Below are positions 7,970 to 18,302 of a stretch of DNA of 41,638 nucleotides, piece after piece. This stretch comes from a virus. The stretch lies in UHGV virus genome UHGV-0109010. The stretch is one strand, 5' to 3'. Within the stretch, counting starts at the first letter, position 1; every line of letters begins with the position of its first letter. A program made the translations under genes and the position numbers. The notes beneath the pieces were generated by a model, which was not told where the DNA came from, did no database searches, and saw only the letters and a program-made list of their open reading frames with translations.

Positions 7970-8899
7970 ATGGCAAACACTGCTGAGATATTCAATTTTC
8001 CAGTGCCGGATGCGGCACAAAAGGAGCCGCGCGTGGCAGATCTCGATGATGGTTATACGCGCATTGCAAATGAGTTGCTGGAAGCTGTGATGCTGGCCGG
8101 ATTAACACAGCACCAGCTTCTGGTCTTCCTGGCTGTCATGCGCAAAACATATGGCTTTAATAAAAAACTGGATTGGGTGAGCAACGAGCAACTGTCCGGA
8201 TTGACCGGGATATTACCGCACAAGTGTTCTGCTGCAAAAAGTGTTCTGGTAAAGCGTGGGATTTTGATTCAGAGCGGGCGGAATATCGGTATTAATAATG
8301 TGGTCAGTGAATGGTCAACATTACCCGAATCAGGTAAGAAAAATAAAGTTTACCTGAAAGAGGTAAATTTACCTGAATCAGGTAAGAAAAGTTTACCCAA
8401 ATCAGGTAAAGGCGTTTACCCGAATCAGGTAAACACAAAAGACAAACTAACAAAAGACAATATAAAACCTTTTTCGTCCGAGAATTCTGGCGAATCCTCT
8501 GACCAACCAGAAAACGATCTTCCTGTGGTGAAACCAGATGCTGCAATTCAGAGCGGCAGCAAGTGGGGGACAGCAGAAGACCTGACCGCCGCAGAGTGGA
8601 TGTTTGACATGGTGAAGACCATCGCACCATCAGCCAGAAAACCGAATTTTGCAGGGTGGGCTAACGATATCCGCCTGATGCGTGAACGTGACGGACGTAA
8701 CCACCGCGACATGTGCGTGCTTTTCCGCTGGGCATGCCAGGACAACTTCTGGTCCGGTAACGTGCTAAGTCCGGCCAAACTCCGCGACAAGTGGACCCAA
8801 CTCGAAATCAACCGTAACAAGCAACAGGCAGGCATGATAGCCAGCAAACCAAAACTCGACCTGACAAACACTGACTGGATTTACGGGGTGGATTTATGA
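7970..8899 (+). CDS. O: Replication initiator O (lambda O-like; alternative in-frame start at 7880)
   Basis: N-terminus MANTAEIFNFPV...VADLDDGYTRIANELLEA...TQHQLLVFLAVMRKTYGFNK parallels lambda O; iterons inside gene; GGAGG SD before 7970. Confidence 0.85.
   Translation: MANTAEIFNFPVPDAAQKEPRVADLDDGYTRIANELLEAVMLAGLTQHQLLVFLAVMRKTYGFNKKLDWVSNEQLSGLTGILPHKCSAAKSVLVKRGILIQSGRNIGINNVVSEWSTLPESGKKNKVYLKEVNLPESGKKSLPKSGKGVYPNQVNTKDKLTKDNIKPFSSENSGESSDQPENDLPVVKPDAAIQSGSKWGTAEDLTAAEWMFDMVKTIAPSARKPNFAGWANDIRLMRERDGRNHRDMCVLFRWACQDNFWSGNVLSPAKLRDKWTQLEINRNKQQAGMIASKPKLDLTNTDWIYGVDL
8321..8476. repeat. Origin of replication: five ~18-bp iterons (TTACCYGAATCAGGTAAR) followed by AT-rich region
   Basis: Direct repeats at 8321, 8350, 8368, 8393, 8415 each with internal dyad TTACC...GGTAA, then A-rich tract; same layout as lambda ori within O. 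Confidence 0.8.
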
Positions 8900-9597
8900 A
8901 AAACATCGCCGCACAGATGGTTAACTTTGACCGTGAGCAGATGCGTCGGATCGCCAACAACATGCCGGAACAGTACGACGAAAAGCCGCAGGTACAGCAG
9001 GTAGCGCAGATCATCAACGGTGTGTTCAGCCAGTTACTGGCAACTTTCCCGGCGAGCCTGGCTAACCGTGACCAGAATGAACTGAACGAAATCCGCCGCC
9101 AGTGGGTGCTGGCTTTTCGGGAAAACGGGATCACCACAATGGAACAGGTTAACGCTGGAATGCGCGTAGCCCGTCGGCAGAATCGACCATTCCTGCCATC
9201 ACCCGGGCAGTTTGTCGCCTGGTGCCGGGAAGAAGCATCCGTTACCGCCGGGCTGCCAAACGCCAGCGAGCTGGTTGATATGGTTTACGAGTATTGCCGG
9301 AAGCGCGGGCTGTATCCGGATGCAGAGTCTTATCCGTGGAAATCAAACGCGCACTACTGGCTGGTTACCAACCTGTATCAGAACATGCGGGCCAATGCGT
9401 TGACTGACGCGGAATTACGGCGCAAGGCTGCCGATGAACTGTCCTGTATGACCGCACGAATTAACCGTGGTGAGGCTATACCTGAACCAGTAAAACAACT
9501 TCCTGTCATGGGCGGTAGACCTCTAAATCGTGCACAGGCTCTGGCGAAGATCGCAGAAATCAAAGCTAAGTTTGGGCTGAAAGGAGCAAGGGTATGA
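8896..9597 (+). CDS. P: Replication protein P (DnaB helicase loader), 233 aa
   Basis: Translation MKNIAAQMVNFDREQMRRIANNMPEQYDEKPQVQQVAQIINGVF... matches lambda P. Confidence 0.93.
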   Translation: MKNIAAQMVNFDREQMRRIANNMPEQYDEKPQVQQVAQIINGVFSQLLATFPASLANRDQNELNEIRRQWVLAFRENGITTMEQVNAGMRVARRQNRPFLPSPGQFVAWCREEASVTAGLPNASELVDMVYEYCRKRGLYPDAESYPWKSNAHYWLVTNLYQNMRANALTDAELRRKAADELSCMTARINRGEAIPEPVKQLPVMGGRPLNRAQALAKIAEIKAKFGLKGARV

Positions 9598-9896
9598 CGG
9601 GCAAAGAGGCAATTATTCATTACCTGGGGACTCATAAGAAATTCTGTGCGCAGGACGTTGCCGCGGTAACAGGCGCAACGGTAACCAGCATAAATCAGGC
9701 TGCGGCTAAAATGGCACGGGCAGGTCTTCTGGCTATCGAAGGTAAGGTCTGGCGAACGGTGTATTACCGGTTTGCTACCAGAGAAGAACGGGAAGGAAAG
9801 GTGAGCACGAATCTGATTTTTAAGGAGTGTCGCCAGAGTGCCGCGATGAAACGGGTATTGAGGGTATATAAAAGAACATCAATGGGTACACAATGA
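9594..9896 (+). CDS. ren: Ren (Rex-exclusion) protein
   Basis: Translation MTGKEAIIHYLGTH...TSINQAAAKMARAG...VWRTVYYRFATREEREGK matches lambda Ren. Confidence 0.88.
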   Translation: MTGKEAIIHYLGTHKKFCAQDVAAVTGATVTSINQAAAKMARAGLLAIEGKVWRTVYYRFATREEREGKVSTNLIFKECRQSAAMKRVLRVYKRTSMGTQ

Positions 9897-9963
9897 TGAA
9901 ACAGGTGAGTTGAGTTCAAACTGTAGTACAATTCTCTCCAGTTTGAACAGGAAAGAATATTCT

Positions 9964-10296
9964 ATGAACCCTTATATTTATCTTGGTGGTGCAATACTTG
10001 CAGAGGTCATTGGTACAACCTTAATGAAGTTTTCAGAAGGTTTTACACGGTTATGGCCATCTGTTGGTACAATTATTTGTTATTGTGCATCATTCTGGTT
10101 ATTAGCTCAGACGCTGGCTTATATTCCTACAGGGATTGCTTATGCTATCTGGTCAGGAGTCGGTATTGTCCTGATTAGCTTACTGTCATGGGGACTTTTC
10201 GGCCAACGGCTGGACCTGCCAGCCATTATAGGCATGATGTTGATTTGTGCCGGTGTGTTGGTTATTAATTTATTGTCACGAAGCACACCACATTAA
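9964..10296 (+). CDS. emrE: SMR-family multidrug efflux transporter EmrE (110 aa from MNPYIYL...)
   Basis: Translation MNPYIYLGGAILAEVIGTTLMKFSEGFTRLWPSVGTIICYCASFWLLAQTLAYIPTGIAYAIWSGVGIV matches E. coli EmrE. Confidence 0.92.
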   Translation: MNPYIYLGGAILAEVIGTTLMKFSEGFTRLWPSVGTIICYCASFWLLAQTLAYIPTGIAYAIWSGVGIVLISLLSWGLFGQRLDLPAIIGMMLICAGVLVINLLSRSTPH

Positions 10297-10327
10297 AAAT
10301 AATTTGTTTCTAAACGACTAAAATATG

Positions 10328-10362
10328 GAGGCTCTTATATTTATATGAGCCTCGTTTTATGC
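10328..10362 (+). terminator. Rho-independent terminator after emrE
   Basis: GAGGCTC-loop-GAGCCTC stem followed by GTTTTATGCTTTTT. Confidence 0.55.
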
Positions 10363-10552
10363 TTTTTGTTAATGTCTTTATTTTTTTATGTATTCTTTTG
10401 TGCTTTCAAGATTATGGCGTAAGAAAATTGCAATACGATTATTGTTGTATATTCAAGATAATGTGACCTTAATTGTCTTTTTAAATAAAAATTAAACAAA
10501 AATTATATCCCACCACTAAGGTTTATAAAAGCATACGTTAGCAGGTGTCACC

Positions 10553-12079
10553 ATGAAAAAAGCCATAGCATATATGCGATTTTCATCACCAGGTCAGATG
10601 TCTGGCGACTCATTAAACCGACAGAGAAGACTTATTGCTGAATGGTTAAAGGTAAATAGTGATTATTATCTTGATACCATAACATATGAAGATTTAGGAT
10701 TAAGTGCATTCAAAGGAAAGCATGCACAATCAGGAGCTTTTTCGGAATTTTTAGATGCTATAGAGCATGGTTATATATTGCCAGGAACTACATTGTTAGT
10801 TGAAAGTCTGGACAGACTTTCAAGAGAAAAAGTCGGTGAAGCGATTGAACGTCTGAAATTGATTTTGAATCACGGTATTGATGTTATAACTCTTTGCGAC
10901 AATACAGTCTATAATATTGACTCTTTGAATGAGCCATATTCATTAATAAAAGCCATACTTATAGCACAAAGGGCAAATGAAGAAAGCGAGATAAAGTCAA
11001 GTCGGGTTAAATTATCATGGAAGAAAAAACGGCAGGATGCACTGGAATCAGGTACGATTATGACGGCGTCTTGTCCGAGATGGCTCTCCTTAGATGACAA
11101 AAGAACGGCTTTTGTTCCAGACCCCGACAGGGTGAAAACTATTGAGCTAATTTTTAAACTCAGGATGGAAAGGCGCTCATTGAATGCAATAGCCAAGTAT
11201 TTAAATGATCATGCTGTAAAGAATTTCTCAGGAAAAGAAAGTGCATGGGGACCTTCTGTAATTGAAAAATTATTAGCGAATAAAGCTCTGATAGGTATAT
11301 GCGTACCTTCATATCGTGCAAGAGGTAAAGGAATAAGTGAAATCGCTGGCTATTATCCCAGAGTCATATCAGATGATTTGTTTTACGCTGTACAGGAAAT
11401 TCGGTTGGCACCTTTTGGTATTAGCAATAGTAGCAAAAATCCTATGTTGATAAATCTACTTCGAACAGTTATGAAGTGCGAGGCTTGTGGTAATACCATG
11501 ATTGTTCATGCGGTATCTGGAAGTTTGCATGGCTATTATGTTTGTCCGATGAGAAGACTGCATCGATGTGACAGGCCATCAATAAAGAGAGATTTGGTTG
11601 ATTATAATATCATTAATGAGTTGCTTTTTAATTGTAGTAAAATCCAACCAGTTGAAAACAAGAAAGATGCTAATGAAACTTTAGAGTTGAAAATTATTGA
11701 GCTCCAGATGAAAATTAATAATTTAATTGCTGCATTATCTGTTGCGCCTGAAGTTACCGCTATAGCAGAAAAAATCAGAGTATTAGATAAGGAATTACGA
11801 AGGGCTTCTGTATCATTAAAAACTTTGAAGAGTAAAGCGGTGAGTTCACTTGGTGATTTTCATGCTATTGACTTAACCAGTAAAAATGGGCGAGAGCTAT
11901 GTCGTACACTTGCCTATAAAACATTCGAAAAAATCATAATCAATACAGATAATAAAACCTGTGATATCTATTTTATGAATGGCATTGTTTTTAAACACTA
12001 TCCTTTAATGAAAACAATATCCGCCCAGCAGGCGATAAGTACTCTCAAATATATGGTTGATGGTGAGGTTTATTTTTGA
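10553..12079 (+). CDS. ybcK: Large serine recombinase (resolvase domain + recombinase domain + zinc ribbon; YbcK-like, 508 aa)
   Basis: N-terminal resolvase-type motif (AIAYMRFSSPGQ...SLNRQ), Cys cluster CEACGN...CPMRRLHRC, C-terminal coiled coil; AT-rich codon usage; same position as ybcK in DLP12. Confidence 0.8.
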   Translation: MKKAIAYMRFSSPGQMSGDSLNRQRRLIAEWLKVNSDYYLDTITYEDLGLSAFKGKHAQSGAFSEFLDAIEHGYILPGTTLLVESLDRLSREKVGEAIERLKLILNHGIDVITLCDNTVYNIDSLNEPYSLIKAILIAQRANEESEIKSSRVKLSWKKKRQDALESGTIMTASCPRWLSLDDKRTAFVPDPDRVKTIELIFKLRMERRSLNAIAKYLNDHAVKNFSGKESAWGPSVIEKLLANKALIGICVPSYRARGKGISEIAGYYPRVISDDLFYAVQEIRLAPFGISNSSKNPMLINLLRTVMKCEACGNTMIVHAVSGSLHGYYVCPMRRLHRCDRPSIKRDLVDYNIINELLFNCSKIQPVENKKDANETLELKIIELQMKINNLIAALSVAPEVTAIAEKIRVLDKELRRASVSLKTLKSKAVSSLGDFHAIDLTSKNGRELCRTLAYKTFEKIIINTDNKTCDIYFMNGIVFKHYPLMKTISAQQAISTLKYMVDGEVYF

Positions 12080-12190
12080 GTAATAATCACTTTTTCAACC
12101 GTGCTATAGTAAGAAAGTTAGGTAAGTACAATAAAATTATCTATCCTGAACGAAGCGTCCTGAGCTATGGTTTTACTATAGAGACTGCCA

Positions 12191-12514
12191 ATGGATGCTG
12201 GCGTTCTCGTTCTAGCAGTTCAACAATACCCAATCACAAAACAATTCACTGATAACGAACTTTGCACACTCGCCTGGTTATGGCGAGCAGGGAATGTGAT
12301 GTTAATTACCTACCAGAACGTTACTCCTCTTCTTCAGGTTGCGGAGCATCGTGAAGCTGGTCGCTTCACTTCTATCGAGCAAGAATATCCCCAGATACTC
12401 AATAAGGCACAGGCAATCCTTGCCAGAGAAACGGCACATGTAAAATTCCGGCCGTGGCAGGATGATAAGTGGAGTCGAGTTTTGCCGCATTTACGTTCGG
12501 ATCGATTACAGTAG
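12191..12514 (+). CDS. Hypothetical protein (107 aa), unknown function
   Basis: ORF only; weak RBS; no recognisable family; may be a gene remnant. Confidence 0.3.
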   Translation: MDAGVLVLAVQQYPITKQFTDNELCTLAWLWRAGNVMLITYQNVTPLLQVAEHREAGRFTSIEQEYPQILNKAQAILARETAHVKFRPWQDDKWSRVLPHLRSDRLQ

Positions 12515-12975
12515 ATTCCAATTAACAATGAGAAACACATAGCCACCCCGTGGTATTGAAACCATATAATGTTGGATTTGAAAACAGATCTTTTTCCATG
12601 TATTAATAACTACATCCCCGCGAGTGATTCAAAAAGGAGGGCCCAATTTTGTCCGAGTTTTTGTATTCCCCCGCATGCCGCTGCGGAGCACTACATCTGA
12701 GTGTCTGACTAGGGGATAAAATTAGACTGGATAGTGAGAAGAAAGTGGCGTGCTAGGCTGTGCCGAGTGCTACCAGTACACCCTGGGGGTGTGCAGCTTT
12801 CGCCGAGACTGTAGTGGGTATCGGTTAATGCACGAAAAACCGAGAGGTCAGACAACCAATTTGCCGTAGGATTGTTTCCGGTGCGATACCGGTGTACTAA
12901 CTGAAAGCAATGCGAAAAAGCATAAACTCGGTCCTTCAGTCGCCCTACACACTATTTACTAAGAAGGGCTAAAGC
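12515..12975. ncRNA. Candidate structured non-coding region (GC-rich island with multiple short hairpins inside AT-rich cargo)
   Basis: No ORF of 60 aa or more; local GC visibly higher than flanks; hairpins such as ACACCC-TGG-GGGTGT and CCGG-TGCGATA-CCGG; no tRNA T-loop. Confidence 0.3.
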
Positions 12976-13332
12976 ATGGATACAATTATCACATGGATGG
13001 GAGATCGTCTGTTGGGGTGGATAACAAACAAATCCGATCTGCGGCAGAGGGCAATCACTGGATTAACTCCTGCGATTTATTCAACAATTTTATATACTGA
13101 AAAATTAAAACGTGGTGAGCCTAATAACCCAAACGAAGAAGAAAAACTTTATAGACTTTGGTATGAAGCGTCTTCCCAAGTCGTAGACTTTGATCGAGAG
13201 CTGGCTAAAAGATGTTTAGATAAATCAGAATATTGGCTTCATTCTGAATTATATAGCCCTGAGAAAGTTGGAGAGCTAAACATTTCTTTGGTTGGTATGA
13301 AGGCAACGCTTGAAGGAATAAAGCACAATTAA
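12976..13332 (+). CDS. Hypothetical protein (118 aa), unknown function
   Basis: ORF with purine-rich RBS (AAGAAGGG); AT-rich codon usage; no recognisable family. Confidence 0.45.
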   Translation: MDTIITWMGDRLLGWITNKSDLRQRAITGLTPAIYSTILYTEKLKRGEPNNPNEEEKLYRLWYEASSQVVDFDRELAKRCLDKSEYWLHSELYSPEKVGELNISLVGMKATLEGIKHN

Positions 13333-13519
13333 AACCTTTGATTTGCGATAATCAACTCGCCATAATCATGTCATCGGAGCCTGAACAACTCCGGTGACTT
13401 CTGCGCTAAACGGGGACGTTTATGCGCACACACAATCCAAACTCTCTTCTCCCTCCACAGATGCAGAAATGCACCTGCGATATATTGTATCCAGCGTTTG
13501 ACCTCTGCGGAGGTGAAGC

Positions 13520-13975
13520 GTGAATCTCCCACAAGATGGCATCAAATTACATCGCGGTAACTTCACCGCTATCGGTCGGCAGATCCAGCCTTATCTGGAG
13601 GAGGGCAAATGCTTTCGCATGGTGCTTAAACCGTGGCGTGAGAAACGCAGTCTTTCCCAGAATGCACTCAGCCACATGTGGTACAGCGAAATCAGTGAAT
13701 ACCTCATCAGCAGGGGTAAAACGTTCGCTACTCCAGCTTGGGTAAAAGATGCTCTCAAACACACATATCTCGGTTATGAAACCAAAGACCTGGTTGATGT
13801 CGTAACCGGTGATATCACCACTATCCAGTCGTTACGCCATACCTCCGATCTTGATACCGGAGAGATGTATGTCTTCCTGTGTAAGGTTGAAGCCTGGGCG
13901 GTGAATATTGGCTGCCACCTGACTATTCCGCAGAGCTGCGAGTTCCAGCTGCTCCGCGACAAGCAGGAGGCGTAA
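13520..13975 (+). CDS. ybcN: NinB/Orf-family recombination protein (YbcN-like), GTG start
   Basis: 151 aa; RSLSQN motif parallels lambda NinB RSLDQN; GGAGG SD; first gene of nin operon. Confidence 0.75.
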
Positions 13976-14145
13976 TGGCTACACCGCTTATTCGTGTCAT
14001 GAACGGACACATCTACAGAGTACCAGATCGTCGTAAGCGTAAACCGGAGCTGAAGCCTTCCGAAATACCAACACTGCTCGGATATACCGCCAGCCTGGTT
14101 GATAAAAAATGGTTGCGACTGGCAGCAAGGAGGAATCATGGCTGA
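13975..14145 (+). CDS. ninE: NinE (56 aa)
   Basis: Manual translation [56 protein letters not shown] matches lambda NinE as recalled; below the 60-aa ORF-track cutoff. Confidence 0.75.
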   Translation: MATPLIRVMNGHIYRVPDRRKRKPELKPSEIPTLLGYTASLVDKKWLRLAARRNHG

Positions 14146-14428
14146 TTTGAGAAAAGCAGCGCGTAGTCGGGAATGCCAGGTAAGAATCCCTGGCGTATGT
14201 AATGGCAACCCTGAAACGTCTGTACTGGCACATATCCGGCTGACTGGATTGTGCGGCACCGGTACCAAACCGCCAGACCTGATTGCCACCATTGCATGTT
14301 CTGCCTGCCACGACGAAATCGACCGCCGCACACATTTTGTCGATGCTGCATATGCAAAAGAATGCGCGCTGGAAGGTATGGCGAGAACACAGGTTATCTG
14401 GCTGAAAGAGGGGGTTATTAAGGCGTGA
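14138..14428 (+). CDS. ybcO: YbcO-like nin-region protein (DUF1364, putative nuclease), 96 aa from [10 protein letters not shown]
   Basis: Cys-rich translation matches DLP12 YbcO as recalled; SD AGGAGG. Confidence 0.75.
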
Positions 14429-14787
14429 ATACCTACAGCATCACATTACCCTGGCCTCCGAGCAATAATCGCTATTACCGCCATAATCGCGGGCGCACGC
14501 ACGTCAGCGCAGAGGGGCAGGCATACCGCGATAACGTCGCCCGAATCATTAAAAACGCAATGCTGGATATCGGCCTGGCTATGCCTGTGAAAATCCGCAT
14601 TGAGTGCCACATGCCGGATCGCCGTCGCCGTGACCTGGATAATCTGCAAAAAGCCGCTTTTGACGCACTCACTAAAGCAGGTTTCTGGCTGGATGATGCT
14701 CAGGTCGTTGATTACCGCGTTGTGAAGATGCCTGTTACCAAAGGTGGGAGGCTGGAACTGACCATCACCGAAATGGGGAATGAATGA
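14425..14787 (+). CDS. rusA: Holliday-junction resolvase RusA (120 aa)
   Basis: Translation [42 protein letters not shown]... matches E. coli RusA. Confidence 0.92.
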
Positions 14788-14924
14788 TGTTTGAGTTTTA
14801 TATGGCAGAACGTCTTCGCCACCGCTGGGGGCGTCTGCGCTTATATCGTTTCCCCGGTTCTGTTTTGACCGATTACCGAATACTGAAGAATTACGCCAAA
14901 ACCCTGACAGGAGCAGGAGTATGA
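14784..14924 (+). CDS. ylcG: YlcG-like small protein (46 aa)
   Basis: Manual translation [46 protein letters not shown]; overlaps rusA stop (ATGA). Confidence 0.6.
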
Positions 14925-15009
14925 AGTCAGAGATAACAATCAACTAATACTGTTTCGTTGATTTTTGCTTGTAATTGGCGTTCTGGTCTGATTTTTGTGG
15001 AGTAAGTTG

Positions 15010-15387
15010 ATGCGTGATATTCAGATGGTTCTTGAGCGTTGGGGAGCGTGGGCGGCTAATAATCATGAAGATGTGACCTGGTCGTCCATTGCCGCCGGTT
15101 TTAAGGGATTAATTACTTCAAAAGTAAAATCTCGCCCACAATGTTGTGACGATGACGCGATGATCATTTGCGGGTGCATGGCCCGTCTGAAAAAGAACAA
15201 CAGCGATTTGCATGATTTATTGGTGGACTATTATGTCGGCGGCATGACTTTTATGGCGCTTGCACGTAAGCATGGGCGATCTGATTGTTGGGTTGGCAGG
15301 ATGCTTCAGAAAGCTGAGGGCGTAGTGGAGGGTATGCTGATGGTGTTGGATCTCCGATTGGAGATGGATGCTGATTGTTCGAAATAA
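15010..15387 (+). CDS. quuD: Late-gene antiterminator Q (phage 82 / QuuD type)
   Basis: Translation [34 protein letters not shown]...[18 protein letters not shown] matches DLP12 QuuD. Confidence 0.88.
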
Positions 15388-15485
15388 TTAAAGGAAAAGT
15401 TGCTGTCTGATTGTCATTAGTCTAACATTTTAAATGTTGGAATCGCAACGTAGTTATTATCATATAACAGCTTGTTTCCTGATTT

Positions 15486-15515
15486 AGCCAGCCTCCCCAA
15501 AGGCTGGTTTTTTTC
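15486..15515 (+). terminator. Rho-independent terminator, probable tR' ending the short pR' transcript
   Basis: CCAGCCT-CCCCAA-AGGCTGG followed by TTTTTTT, about 100 nt downstream of Q stop. Confidence 0.65.
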
Positions 15516-15542
15516 TAATAAGTATTATTTCGGGTAGGGATT

Positions 15543-16067
15543 TTATTGTTTAACCCATAATAATTCATTGACATTGAATCCCAACTTTTGAGCGGTTCGC
15601 ACATAGTCTGCTTTTACTTTATCTGGAATAGTTGGGGTCCTTGCCAGAATCCATAGGTATTCTCTGTTCGGACCACTGACAAGAGCATACTTATACTCAT
15701 CATCCAGTTTGATTACATTATAGCCACCATAGAAGGGGCCAAAAAACGAAACCTTCAATGCTGCAGTTTTAGTATCTCCAGTAAAGTATGCTTTACCTTC
15801 GCTCTCGCTCCATTTATTTTTCGTTGGATCGTATCCACGGTTAAGTACACGAATCCCTCCGTCGTTCCGTTTTCCATAAGTAGCGCTGACCTGTTCCAGA
15901 CCACGTTCGAACCGGTTCTCGAGGCGAGCTATTTCATACCATTTTCCGAGGTAGCGGTTGGCGTCAAAATTTGTAATCGGCTGCACACCTTTAGGTGGTG
16001 TCGGGGCCTTACATGCTATAAGAGTGAAAGAGAGTGCAATGCCAGTCAACACAGGCCATAACTTCAT
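15543..16067 (-). CDS. Outer-membrane lipocalin lipoprotein (Blc-like), lipobox LIAC
   Basis: Signal peptide with lipobox; motifs NFDxxRYLGxWYEIAR and KVSFFGPFYGGYNVI parallel E. coli Blc but the sequence is diverged. Confidence 0.8.
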   Translation of the reverse strand: MKLWPVLTGIALSFTLIACKAPTPPKGVQPITNFDANRYLGKWYEIARLENRFERGLEQVSATYGKRNDGGIRVLNRGYDPTKNKWSESEGKAYFTGDTKTAALKVSFFGPFYGGYNVIKLDDEYKYALVSGPNREYLWILARTPTIPDKVKADYVRTAQKLGFNVNELLWVKQ

Positions 16068-16259
16068 AATAAATCCTGTACTTTTGATAGTTGAGAGTAA
16101 GTATGAAAGATAGATGATTACGACCGATCACTTAAAGAACTTTCATACTATATTAGGAATAGTCCATAACAGAAAAATTGTCAGTGATGACGCCAGAAAG
16201 GCAATTTATTCCGTGCACTACACAGTTTATGTGTTAATGAATTAGTCAAGGGGGAGAAT

Positions 16260-17219
16260 ATGATAAAAAAACCTGTGATTGGAATCAGCGGTTGTTTGGC
16301 CGGTTCTGCTGTTCGTTTTGATGGTGGTCACAAAAGAGCTGACTTTTTAATGGACAAATTAGTGGAATGGGTAACATTCAGACCAGTATGTCCGGAAATG
16401 GCTATAGGGCTGCCAGTTCCGCGTCCTGCTCTACGTCTTGTGCGCTCGACGCAAGGAAATATACGGATGTGTTTCAGCCACGACCAGAATGAGGATGTGA
16501 CAGAGAGAATGACAGAGTTTAGTCGTTCTTATATGGACAAATTAAAGGATGTATCGGGGTTTGTGGTTTGTGCTAAATCTCCCAGCTGTGGCATGGAGCG
16601 CGTGCGTGTCTATGATGAAAATGGTAATCGAGGTCGTAAAGATGGAGTGGGACTATTTACGAGCACTTTGATGGAAAAGTTTTCCTGGCTACCGGTTGAA
16701 GAGGATGGGCGATTACATGATCCAGTGCTTCGTGAGAATTTTGTTGAAAGAGTTTTTGCTTTGCATGAGCTCAATCACCTTTACAAGGAGAAATTATCAA
16801 GAAGAGAGTTATTAGCTTTTCATAGTCGTTATAAGCTTCAGTTGTTGGCGCATAGTCAGGCAGGCTATAAAGATATGGGACCATTTGTGGCTGCAATACA
16901 CGAGTGGGCGGACCTTGAATCATACTTTGAGGTGTATCGTGATAAGCTGATGGCGATTCTCAGAAAACCTGCATCACGTAAAAATCACACGAATGTGCTG
17001 ATGCATATACAGGGGTATTTTAGTAACTACTTAAGTACACGCCAGCGTAAAGAGTTGAGCGAGGTTATACTTAACTATCGTTCTGGCACATTACCTCTTC
17101 TTGCGCCGTTGACTCTGCTGAAGCATTATCTGGGTGAGTATCCTAATGATTACTTGCTTACACAGAATTACTTCGATCCCTATCCGGACGAACTGGCTCT
17201 AAGACTGATGGTAAATTAA
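16260..17219 (+). CDS. DUF523 (TudS-like Fe-S desulfidase) / DUF1722 fusion protein, YbgA/RudS-like
   Basis: N-terminal GISGCLAG...RPVCPEM...CAKSPSCG Cys pattern typical of DUF523; longer C-terminal helical domain; family assignment from memory. Confidence 0.6.
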   Translation: MIKKPVIGISGCLAGSAVRFDGGHKRADFLMDKLVEWVTFRPVCPEMAIGLPVPRPALRLVRSTQGNIRMCFSHDQNEDVTERMTEFSRSYMDKLKDVSGFVVCAKSPSCGMERVRVYDENGNRGRKDGVGLFTSTLMEKFSWLPVEEDGRLHDPVLRENFVERVFALHELNHLYKEKLSRRELLAFHSRYKLQLLAHSQAGYKDMGPFVAAIHEWADLESYFEVYRDKLMAILRKPASRKNHTNVLMHIQGYFSNYLSTRQRKELSEVILNYRSGTLPLLAPLTLLKHYLGEYPNDYLLTQNYFDPYPDELALRLMVN

Positions 17220-17561
17220 TTGTATGCGATATCATCCAAAAGGATGAGTTCCTGCATGCAGGATATTTACAATCGTAAAAACTACACTATGATACCCAGA
17301 GTGTCAGTTTGTATAAAAACTCTGTTTACGCTGAAGAAACAATTGAGATGCAACTTAAAGTTAGTAAACATGCCAGTCAAAATATATAATATTATGATTC
17401 CACGCAGCTATATATAATATAACAGATTGGTTTAATAATTTGTCTTTGTGAGTTAAATACATAATTTTATACTTGTGATGCAATGAAATTTTCCTTATTG
17501 TTGAACTGGCGAATATTGATTTTCCACCTATACTTACCTGGTGTAACCCCAATGATATCAG

Positions 17562-18302
17562 GTGGATAATATGCTATACATATGTTCTATCATTTTGGTG
17601 TTGAACTCGTTTGATGTCCGAATTGGTAAAGAAGATATTTTGTTTAAAAAAGGAAGTGCTGTTCTCATTGATTACAATTTAAAAGATTTTTTTTCATCAA
17701 ATATAGATCATGTAATGATCGTAGATGTTGAAGAAAAAACAGTTAATGATTTCTTTAAAAGCAACACACTCTCACCTTTTTCTGTAAGAAGGTTTTATCC
17801 GGCATACTTGATGGTGGAATGTGAAGATTTTTCATTGTTAAAGAACTTGATTGCATGCTTGAATTGTGATGGCAGAACTGTGGATTTTGTTAGAAATCAA
17901 ATATCACTTGCATGTCTTGCTATCTTATCTTCAGAGAAAATAGTGCAAAGTTTTTTATTTGGATGTCTTAATAGTTTAGGAAGTAAAGTTAAGGCTATTA
18001 TTCACACGGATATATCTGCAGCATGGAGACTTTGTGATATATCTTCAAGACTGTATCTGAGTGAAAGTCTGTTAAAAAGAAAATTAAAGCACGAAGGCTT
18101 ATCATTTAGTAAGTTAATTCTTGAAGAGCGAATGGTGATGGCGGAAAGGTTATTAAGCTACAATTTATATTCTGTTGGAAAAGTTGCTGAGATATGCAGT
18201 TATGAAAACACGTCATATTTTGTAAGTGTTTTCAGAAGGTATTTTGGTGTTCCTCCCCATCAATATTCATCAAGATTTTTTTTAGAAAAAGACATGATGT
18301 AA
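17562..18302 (+). CDS. AraC/XylS-family transcriptional regulator, AppY/EnvY-like (alternative ATG start at 17571)
   Basis: C-terminal double-HTH AraC signature (KVAEICSYENTSYFVSVFRRYFGVPPHQY); N-terminus resembles AppY; AT-rich gene and upstream region. Confidence 0.8.
   Translation: MDNMLYICSIILVLNSFDVRIGKEDILFKKGSAVLIDYNLKDFFSSNIDHVMIVDVEEKTVNDFFKSNTLSPFSVRRFYPAYLMVECEDFSLLKNLIACLNCDGRTVDFVRNQISLACLAILSSEKIVQSFLFGCLNSLGSKVKAIIHTDISAAWRLCDISSRLYLSESLLKRKLKHEGLSFSKLILEERMVMAERLLSYNLYSVGKVAEICSYENTSYFVSVFRRYFGVPPHQYSSRFFLEKDMM

Follow-up and report, generated by a model that had tools for sequence, protein, structure and literature searches.

The DNA analyzed here, virus genome UHGV-0109010 (41,638 nt; "the window", in whose coordinates all positions are given), is a DLP12-type lambdoid prophage located at the tRNA-Arg gene argU (875-951), which was the sole match in a tRNA/tmRNA search of the window. 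Its genes run in the order O, P, ren, emrE, a ylcJ remnant, ybcK, ORF107, 461 nt free of open reading frames (ORFs), ORF118, a ylcH-like ORF, and ybcN, with names taken from the RefSeq annotation of an identical locus (L001). The subject of this report is a 331-nt element at 12614-12944, within the 461 nt that separate ORF107 from ORF118. Comparative alignment defines it as a conserved core that appears to be a structured RNA, which we favor reading as a stand-alone RNA gene. The element, its putative promoter, and the neighboring genes from emrE to the ylcH-like ORF lie on the plus strand. A first-pass annotation of this region had pointed to an RNA module in the ORF-free stretch, an idea now strongly supported by conservation, covariation, and the placement of promoter and terminator signals. 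It was also accurate in finding no long ORF there (none exceeds 48 amino acids, aa), but its description of the stretch as hairpin-dense lacks thermodynamic support, as the minimum free energy (MFE) z-scores below make clear.

The core runs from ATCCCCGCGAG to CAGTCGCC, its edges are sharp when divergent copies are aligned, and amid unrelated flanks it retains 79-100% identity. Our panel for all E. coli counts was a set of 5,426 complete genomes, of which 159 (approximately 3%) carry the element and none annotate it. The isolated phages IdasGreatGrand and Turner contain copies with 99.7% identity, and two Klebsiella phages have copies at 79%; between E. coli and Klebsiella phages, the core is approximately 80% identical amid flanks that cannot be aligned. 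Approximately 65 loci were found in IMG/VR, and the same set was returned by five different DNA patterns built from one, two, or three blocks. A three-block pattern added 23 loci from JGI metagenomes, each a true member scoring more than 349 bits in nhmmer, for a total of about 90 viral or metagenome contigs, and further copies in prophages of Enterobacter bugandensis and Obesumbacterium proteus were reached through homologs of ORF118. The element was not found in the plasmids searched. A single pattern run against GTDB species representatives gave three matches (L073-L075) that nhmmer identified as chance, and another candidate, L056, was rejected on the same grounds. No distant relatives were found with the five degenerate patterns in IMG/VR or in the JGI metagenomes, which returned solely the same tight family. 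As it stands, this family comprises 30 distinct sequences of at least approximately 79% identity, in about six recombining lineages of Enterobacterales lambdoid phages. Rfam 15 contained no match at E<=1 for a 5-kb segment or at E<=10 for 431 nt alone, including the models for GOLLD, ROOL, HEARO, C4, sar, IsrK, DicF, IpeX, introns, ribozymes, and riboswitches. No published description was found in the literature, genome-wide surveys of non-coding RNA and a catalogue of viral structured RNAs included; an unnamed entry or fragments may exist in a bulk catalogue of more than 10,000 viral candidates (PMC10690425).

A protein-coding explanation for this conservation was ruled out. Stop codons occur in all six frames of the core in every lineage, and the 136 variable columns of the alignment are split 48/41/47 by codon position, showing no codon periodicity. 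What the alignment shows is invariant blocks of 18-48 nt alternating with variable stems. The 5' domain does contain an invariant AAAGGAGG at 12633-12640 (AAGGAGG), followed by a TTG (12649) that opens a 19-codon mini-ORF closed by a stop codon at 12706-12708. Its changes are mostly non-synonymous (approximately 10, versus approximately 4 synonymous), and it is prematurely terminated in 3 of the 30 variants. Coding constraint is therefore probably absent from this mini-ORF, although ribosomes may bind at the AAAGGAGG/TTG site within the 5' domain.

Evidence for base pairing was sought at the level of whole helices. With an alignment this shallow, scoring column pairs one by one for covariation tells little, since the small number of lineages produces hundreds of spurious pairs under naive scoring, and helix-level and slid-register tests were used instead. 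An RNAalifold consensus contained 82 pairs, 12 of them with compensatory changes. When the 250-290 region, which was modelled poorly, was exchanged for a hairpin backed by four sequence variants, a curated structure of 85 nested pairs in 15 helices resulted. In this structure 95.9% of cells are paired, compared with 34-49% in slid controls, and 16 pairs have changes on both sides, compared with 1-7. The covariation score of 0.216 was attained in 0 of 500 shuffles and exceeds every slid control (at most 0.068). Two sequences that had not been used in deriving the structure, L100 and L102, form 83 and 89 of 91 canonical pairs, against 31-45 in slid registers.

The best-supported helices (in alignment columns) are 128-133/183-188, 138-145/149-156, 189-197/204-212, and 259-269/275-284. 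The stem of the hairpin at 12802-12825 contains 4 compensated pairs, and one pair in it, 196/205, occurs as five different pair types. Compensated pairs are also found in a predicted branched sub-domain of helices 7-10 (12741-12801), with three in helix 7 (12741-12746 with 12796-12801) and three in helix 9 (12751-12758 with 12762-12769). Helix 14, the variable hairpin at 12872-12897 that reads CCGGU-GCGAU-ACCGG in the window, is compensated across four variants at pairs 260/283, 263/281, 265/279, and 269/275. The pairing also carries a strand signature. Invariant G-U pairs (133/183 and 189/212, for example) would be A-C mismatches if the other strand were transcribed, which identifies the plus strand as the RNA.

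A helix-level search for further contacts yielded a 6-bp kissing loop. Its strands are CACUAC (columns 76-81; 12689-12694), in the loop of hairpin 5 (12679-12703), and GUAGUG (columns 198-203; 12811-12816), in the loop of hairpin 11 (12802-12825). All 180 of 180 cells are paired, whereas slid controls reach 8-56% and are without compensations; the compensations here are at 77/202 (AU and GC) and at 79/200 (UA, AU, and CG). Through this predicted contact between the two loops, the 5' domain (12614-12717) is held against the 3' domain (12725-12941). We also observed a second candidate long-range pairing, GGGCC/GGUCC, at columns 26-30/318-322 (12639-12643/12930-12934), with 5 bp, one of them compensated; part of helix 12 is incompatible with it, and we consider it weak. 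Two natural partial copies of the element were seen, one in which the 5' domain is replaced entirely (L019) and one with a foreign 3' end after approximately column 305 (L064), and these could serve as natural deletion variants.

Sequences on either side of the core resemble the ends of a transcription unit. With upstream regions aligned flush against the core's first base (A1), a putative sigma-70 promoter was apparent, which in the window spans 12578-12607 with a -35 hexamer TTGAAA (12578-12583), a -10 hexamer TATTAA/ATTAAT (12601-12607), and a predicted start near A12614. Across the family the -35 hexamer occurs as TTGAAA, TTGAAT, TTGTAT, or TTGATA at -35 to -30, and the -10 hexamer as TTTAAT, TTAAAT, or ATTAAT at -12 to -7. 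These positions are fixed in at least 6 unrelated types of upstream sequence, and the 17-nt spacers between the hexamers are unrelated. An inverted repeat overlaps the -35 hexamer (AACCATA-N5-TATGGTT in L039, imperfect at 12560-12583 in the window, and present also in L025 and L031); it may act as an operator or mark where the upstream transcript ends.

At the other end, 18 of 52 distinct contexts have a GC-rich hairpin and a run of 6-8 T immediately after the core, 17 of them labelled as terminators and one (L012) recognized by eye; in L059 a terminator after the core was detected by the tool. In other lineages CCGCCnnnnGGCGG and a T run occupy the position of the window's spacer between the RNA and ORF118 (12945-12975). 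Read from the sequence, this spacer has no intrinsic terminator and includes a GAAGGG resembling a Shine-Dalgarno sequence. The terminator is absent from the lineage of the window and from those of L025, L039, L100, and L102, where a spacer of approximately 35 nt leads to ORF118.

The surroundings of the element vary from one phage to another. Upstream there may be a bro-like gene, a dATP/dGTP pyrophosphohydrolase (MazG-like) gene, or others, and downstream ORF118, a gene for a 178-aa membrane protein, phrog_27260, phrog_23640, or directly DUF1367. No protein travels with the RNA across contexts. The same RNA unit thus lies between unrelated neighbors in related phages, which is the distribution that characterizes a moron. 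The RNA is no more complementary to the remainder of the phage than expected by chance (7 11-mers observed, 6.4 expected). This speaks against simple antisense action inside the phage, and an antisense target there was rejected on this basis. Tandem Repeats Finder reported no tandem repeats at score >=30 in 12000-13600, and the RNA itself contained no direct repeats, so that repeat-based systems (ToxI, CRISPR-like) were rejected as well.

ORF118 (12976-13332; GC 0.38) is the downstream neighbor in the window. It belongs to phrog_12412 (E 5e-71), its homologs form 21 clusters found in Enterobacterales only, and sequence searches with it against Pfam, NCBIfam, PADLOC, and the PDB were empty. An AlphaFold2 (AF2) model (pLDDT 80) predicts a four-helix bundle, and its structure matches are only to generic helical bundles. 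In approximately half of the E. coli contexts a frameshift shortens ORF118 to 66, 37, or 28 aa, and the RNA stays full length. The frameshift site is a run of G at 13010-13025 of the window (TTGGGGTGG; elsewhere TTGGGGGGG), seen in L003 (4465-4665), L022, L028, L035, and L084, and the 66-aa form has its own PHROG, phrog_8527. A homolog with 51% identity (L099, 300-656) occurs without the RNA; it is flanked by a DNA polymerase III theta-like gene on one side and DUF1233/integrase on the other, and lies at the opposite prophage end. Since ORF118 is often frameshifted beside an intact RNA and has a homolog that lacks one, the two are frequent neighbors but separable. A promoter-like site, TTGATT-17-CATAAT, was observed just 3' of ORF118, at 13338-13366.

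Upstream of the RNA, ORF107 (12191-12514) is the remnant of an antirepressor-like gene truncated at its 5' end. It matches Pfam P22_AR_C (PF10548) with an E of 1e-15 over residues 15-85, its matches in Ant PHROGs are confined to C-terminal parts, and an N-terminal DNA-binding domain (Bro-N/ANT/KilA-N) is absent. Phage IdasGreatGrand carries an intact 202-aa homolog with Bro-N and P22_AR_C (L005, 4307-4915), of which ORF107 represents residues 100-202 at 85% identity. Bro-N is missing since the gene has been cut at approximately 12190, and the start codon of ORF107 is a fortuitous ATG. DNA homology between the window and IdasGreatGrand begins at approximately 12185-12200 and continues unbroken into the RNA. 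We therefore place here the end of an AT-rich cassette of emrE (9964-10296, from the RefSeq annotation and Pfam), the ylcJ remnant, and ybcK (10553-12079), which spans 9964-12190 at a GC of 0.27-0.42 and has removed the 5' half of the phage gene. The cassette is context and lies outside the RNA unit; the DNA from approximately 12190 to 13519 is native to lambdoid phages and occurs also in the isolated phages IdasGreatGrand and Turner.

These borders redraw the region as the first-pass annotation had described it. Where that annotation saw a single 3.2-kb block of low-GC cargo, the cassette ends inside a phage gene and the DNA to its right is common to free-living phages. GC is not uniformly low: it is 0.27 in the ylcJ remnant and 0.36 in ybcK, whereas ORF107 is at 0.47 and the RNA core, at 0.51, equals the phage backbone (0.50-0.52). 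The block had been drawn as 10297-13519 with emrE inside it, and emrE in fact ends at 10296. Its identification of ybcK as a 508-aa large serine recombinase is borne out by an intact reading frame and three domains above the Pfam threshold (Resolvase PF00239, Recombinase PF07508, and Zn_ribbon_recom PF13408). The coordinates and lengths it gave for the two small ORFs (107 and 118 aa) were right, but ORF107 is not of unknown family, since P22_AR_C accounts for it.

The interval from ybcK to ybcN had also been proposed as a variable slot, and the genomes compared bear this out. K-12 DLP12 has ybcL-ybcM-ylcH after ybcK, in agreement with that annotation for ybcL and ybcM. Strain 1410D004 has emrE-ybcK-ORF107 and then a protein with a BstA C-terminal domain in place of the RNA and ORF118, and strain N10 lacks emrE-ybcK yet carries the RNA together with a truncated ORF118. 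The whole 1,440-nt arrangement is present in 95 genomes of the panel, and the ylcH/ybcN flank that forms the right border of the slot was matched in 2,949. In the window this conserved flank consists of the ylcH-like 33-aa ORF (13422-13523, from the RefSeq annotation), which overlaps the start of ybcN (13520-13975). The slot protein of 1410D004 (L004, 3634-4563) has 309 aa, is annotated as "BstA C-terminal domain-containing," precedes ylcH-ybcN, and had no Pfam match. A 164-aa VasI/TagO-like gene (type VI secretion-associated; PF11319, E approximately 3e-6) was seen in the interval from ren to the RNA in both N10 (L003, 3333-3827) and IdasGreatGrand (L005, 2416-2910). Another variable slot lies downstream of a Q-like antiterminator at approximately 15500-18300 of the window (transferred from L001, 9464-12223), with lipocalin-family, YbgA-family, and helix-turn-helix genes; N10 and 1410D004 have a porin gene (ompC/porin) at the equivalent position.

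From its position in such a slot, the interval had been suggested as a likely place for a defense or anti-defense system, with both small ORFs and the intervening stretch forming one module. Neither suggestion is supported. ORF107 is a remnant, ORF118 is separable, and the RNA is found with at least 5 unrelated downstream genes. PADLOC-DB 2.0 gave no match for ybcK, ORF107, ORF118, or the four alternative downstream proteins, and the predicted fold of ORF118 is a generic four-helix bundle. Nothing but its position in a variable slot ties the RNA to defense, and for the defense question both small ORFs give no hint.

We consider it very probable, from the comparative pattern, that 12614-12944 encodes a genuine structured RNA. 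That this RNA is an independent transcription unit appears probable from the placement of the putative promoter and terminators. Taken together, our favored reading is that of a stand-alone structured RNA gene of the moron type, present in a subset of enterobacterial lambdoid phages, to which we assign a probability of roughly 55%. Such an RNA would be transcribed from its own sigma-70 promoter, with a start at A12614, and in most lineages outside E. coli the transcript would end at an intrinsic terminator approximately 10-20 nt past the core. Promoter, gene, and terminator together make the classical layout of a moron, and the gene could be expressed from a repressed prophage. In the lineage of the window, the missing terminator means that the same transcript would continue into ORF118. 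The RNA would then act in trans, with its folded shape either binding a protein or small ligand or allowing self-assembly. This step is less supported than the others, and we see the case for trans action as evenly balanced; both antisense pairing and control of a single downstream gene look less probable than such action by the fold.

Several observations weigh against this reading. The MFE z-scores are no better than those of shuffled sequences (-0.41, -1.26, and -0.10 for the 461 nt, the core, and a Klebsiella homolog, respectively), and the evidence for RNA structure is entirely comparative. The sequences that were scored are those from which the structure was derived, and the 5' domain is supported mostly by invariant pairs. 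The family is shallow, with identities of at least approximately 79% and approximately 6 lineages, so that compensatory events are few and phylogenetically correlated, and conservation within E. coli may largely reflect recent common descent. The promoter hexamers fail a strict consensus scan, which misses such sites because it demands an A at position 2 of the -10 hexamer. Both transcript ends are predictions, and with no terminator between the RNA and ORF118 in the window the RNA could here simply be a long 5' leader.

This last point can be generalized into the alternative that the element is a cis-regulatory leader, similar to a riboswitch or attenuator, in which the folded domain senses a signal and gates transcription or translation of the downstream cargo gene. 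The expression platform would then be the terminator in most lineages and a hairpin containing the Shine-Dalgarno sequence in the E. coli lineage. Such a leader would account for a same-strand gene that is always within approximately 40-110 nt downstream, and for one conserved domain followed by differing 3' ends (a terminator, or a Shine-Dalgarno sequence with none), as in riboswitch families. It could also give a role to the invariant AAGGAGG and TTG-started 19-codon mini-ORF of the 5' domain, were it not for the mostly non-synonymous changes of the latter and its premature stops in 3/30 variants. By eye, CAGUCGCC, which forms the closing helix's 3' strand, can be paired with the GGCGG arm of the terminator, but this alternative pairing is 5 GC-rich base pairs that could easily arise by chance, and the terminator sequences themselves are lineage-specific and generic-looking. 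The downstream genes, at least 5 in number, are mutually unrelated and even include the core gene DUF1367, so that they form no functionally coherent set, and 331 nt is large for a riboswitch aptamer. We therefore regard a leader as unlikely. Still less likely, in our estimation, is that the RNA and ORF118 form a two-part system for phage defense or counter-defense, either as an RNA-protein complex or as a pair resembling a toxin and antitoxin. The RNA is found directly upstream of ORF118 in several of its lineages (in prophages of E. coli, Enterobacter bugandensis, and Obesumbacterium proteus, and in L025/L039), a BstA-like protein occupies the same slot in another strain, and the order of promoter, RNA, and protein resembles type III toxin-antitoxin loci. 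A partnership of this kind is difficult to reconcile with the frameshifts that disrupt ORF118 in approximately half of E. coli contexts, with the 51%-identical homolog that sits beside an integrase and without the RNA, and with at least 18 contexts in which the RNA occurs without ORF118. ORF118 is moreover a slightly acidic, generic four-helix bundle without a nuclease or RNA-binding signature, and the locus has no tandem repeats and no PADLOC match.

A more skeptical explanation is that there is no RNA function at all, and that the element is conserved at the DNA level as a protein-binding or recombination site, or is neutral DNA that has recently spread, with covariation arising as a by-product of few recombining lineages. 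The shallow diversity of approximately 6 lineages, the many spurious covarying column pairs under single-pair scoring, and the non-significant MFE would all fit this explanation. It does not account for compensations that fall in contiguous antiparallel runs in exact register and are destroyed by a slide of one column, nor for the alternation of invariant 18-48-nt blocks with variable stems. G-U pairs specific to one strand, a promoter and terminator on that same strand, and a core that remains approximately 80% identical between E. coli and Klebsiella phages when its flanks cannot be aligned also speak for an RNA, and we consider the absence of RNA function improbable, to a degree comparable with the two-part system.

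If the stand-alone RNA gene is the correct interpretation, then what appears as a "hypothetical intergenic gap" in approximately 3% of complete E. coli genomes would be a conserved gene that annotation pipelines have never listed. Few bacterial RNAs longer than 300 nt have conserved tertiary contacts, and each of those understood so far serves as a ribozyme, as a scaffold for ribonucleoproteins, or as a self-assembling cage. The hosts of most orphan large RNAs (GOLLD, ROOL, and OLE among them) are difficult to manipulate. What is new here is an apparent RNA family, unclassified and with predicted tertiary structure, in well-studied and tractable phages. Because it sits in lambdoid phages of E. 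coli and Klebsiella, including the isolates IdasGreatGrand and Turner, deletion, complementation, structure probing, and partner pull-downs should be straightforward. More speculatively, and with less confidence than for the gene itself, we suggest that this RNA might be the first representative of a new class of phage RNAs with tertiary structure (ligand- or protein-binding, self-assembling, or ribozymes), made from its own promoter and influencing lysogen physiology or conflict between phages.

Comparison with known systems places the element among several families without assigning it to any of them. ORF107 resembles Bro-N/P22AR_C antirepressor-like proteins in its C-terminal P22AR_C domain, with Bro-N missing. 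A retron or defense-associated reverse transcriptase (DRT) origin found no support, as no reverse-transcriptase domain was found in the Pfam-scanned ORFs (emrE, ybcK, ORF107, ORF118, ybcN, and a 58-aa ORF, drawn from the ORFs of at least 40 aa in 8500-15500) and no reverse transcriptase in the RefSeq annotation of the identical locus. The omega-RNA of TnpB/IscB and the bridge RNA of IS110 were rejected as candidates, since the sole nearby recombinase, ybcK, is absent from most loci bearing the RNA and there is no HEARO match. Type III toxin-antitoxin systems such as ToxIN share with this locus the sequence of promoter, RNA, (terminator), and small protein gene in a mobile element, but the RNA here has no tandem repeat array, and its downstream protein is variable and not a ToxN/AbiQ-like endoribonuclease. 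Riboswitch and attenuator leaders likewise place a conserved folded domain ahead of a gene, with a terminator or a Shine-Dalgarno region in between; in this case the downstream genes share no function and no known aptamer family matches.

Closer in habitat are the regulatory and immunity RNAs of prophages (IpeX of DLP12, DicF of Qin, OOP of lambda, sar of P22, c4 of P1/P7, CI of P4, and IsrK of Gifsy), which are also non-coding RNAs of temperate phages with their own promoter, putative here. Some of these adjoin antirepressor genes, and in E. coli the present RNA follows a bro/ant-like gene. These RNAs are 50-200 nt and act by antisense through simple hairpins, whereas the present RNA has a predicted 15 helices and a kissing loop with chance-level complementarity, and no Rfam match to C4, sar, IsrK, DicF, or IpeX was found. 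The closest kind are the GOLLD and ROOL RNAs. This RNA differs from them in its length (331 nt versus roughly 600-800 nt), its restriction to lambdoid phages of Enterobacterales, and the absence of a match to their Rfam models. It is also not next to tRNA genes as they are, since the sole tRNA is argU at 875-951. RNAs of the GOLLD/ROOL type are described as forming homo-oligomeric complexes in PMC12286853. Like GOLLD and ROOL, the RNA described here is borne by phages, would stand alone, appears to consist of multiple domains joined by long-range tertiary contacts, and has no dedicated adjacent protein.

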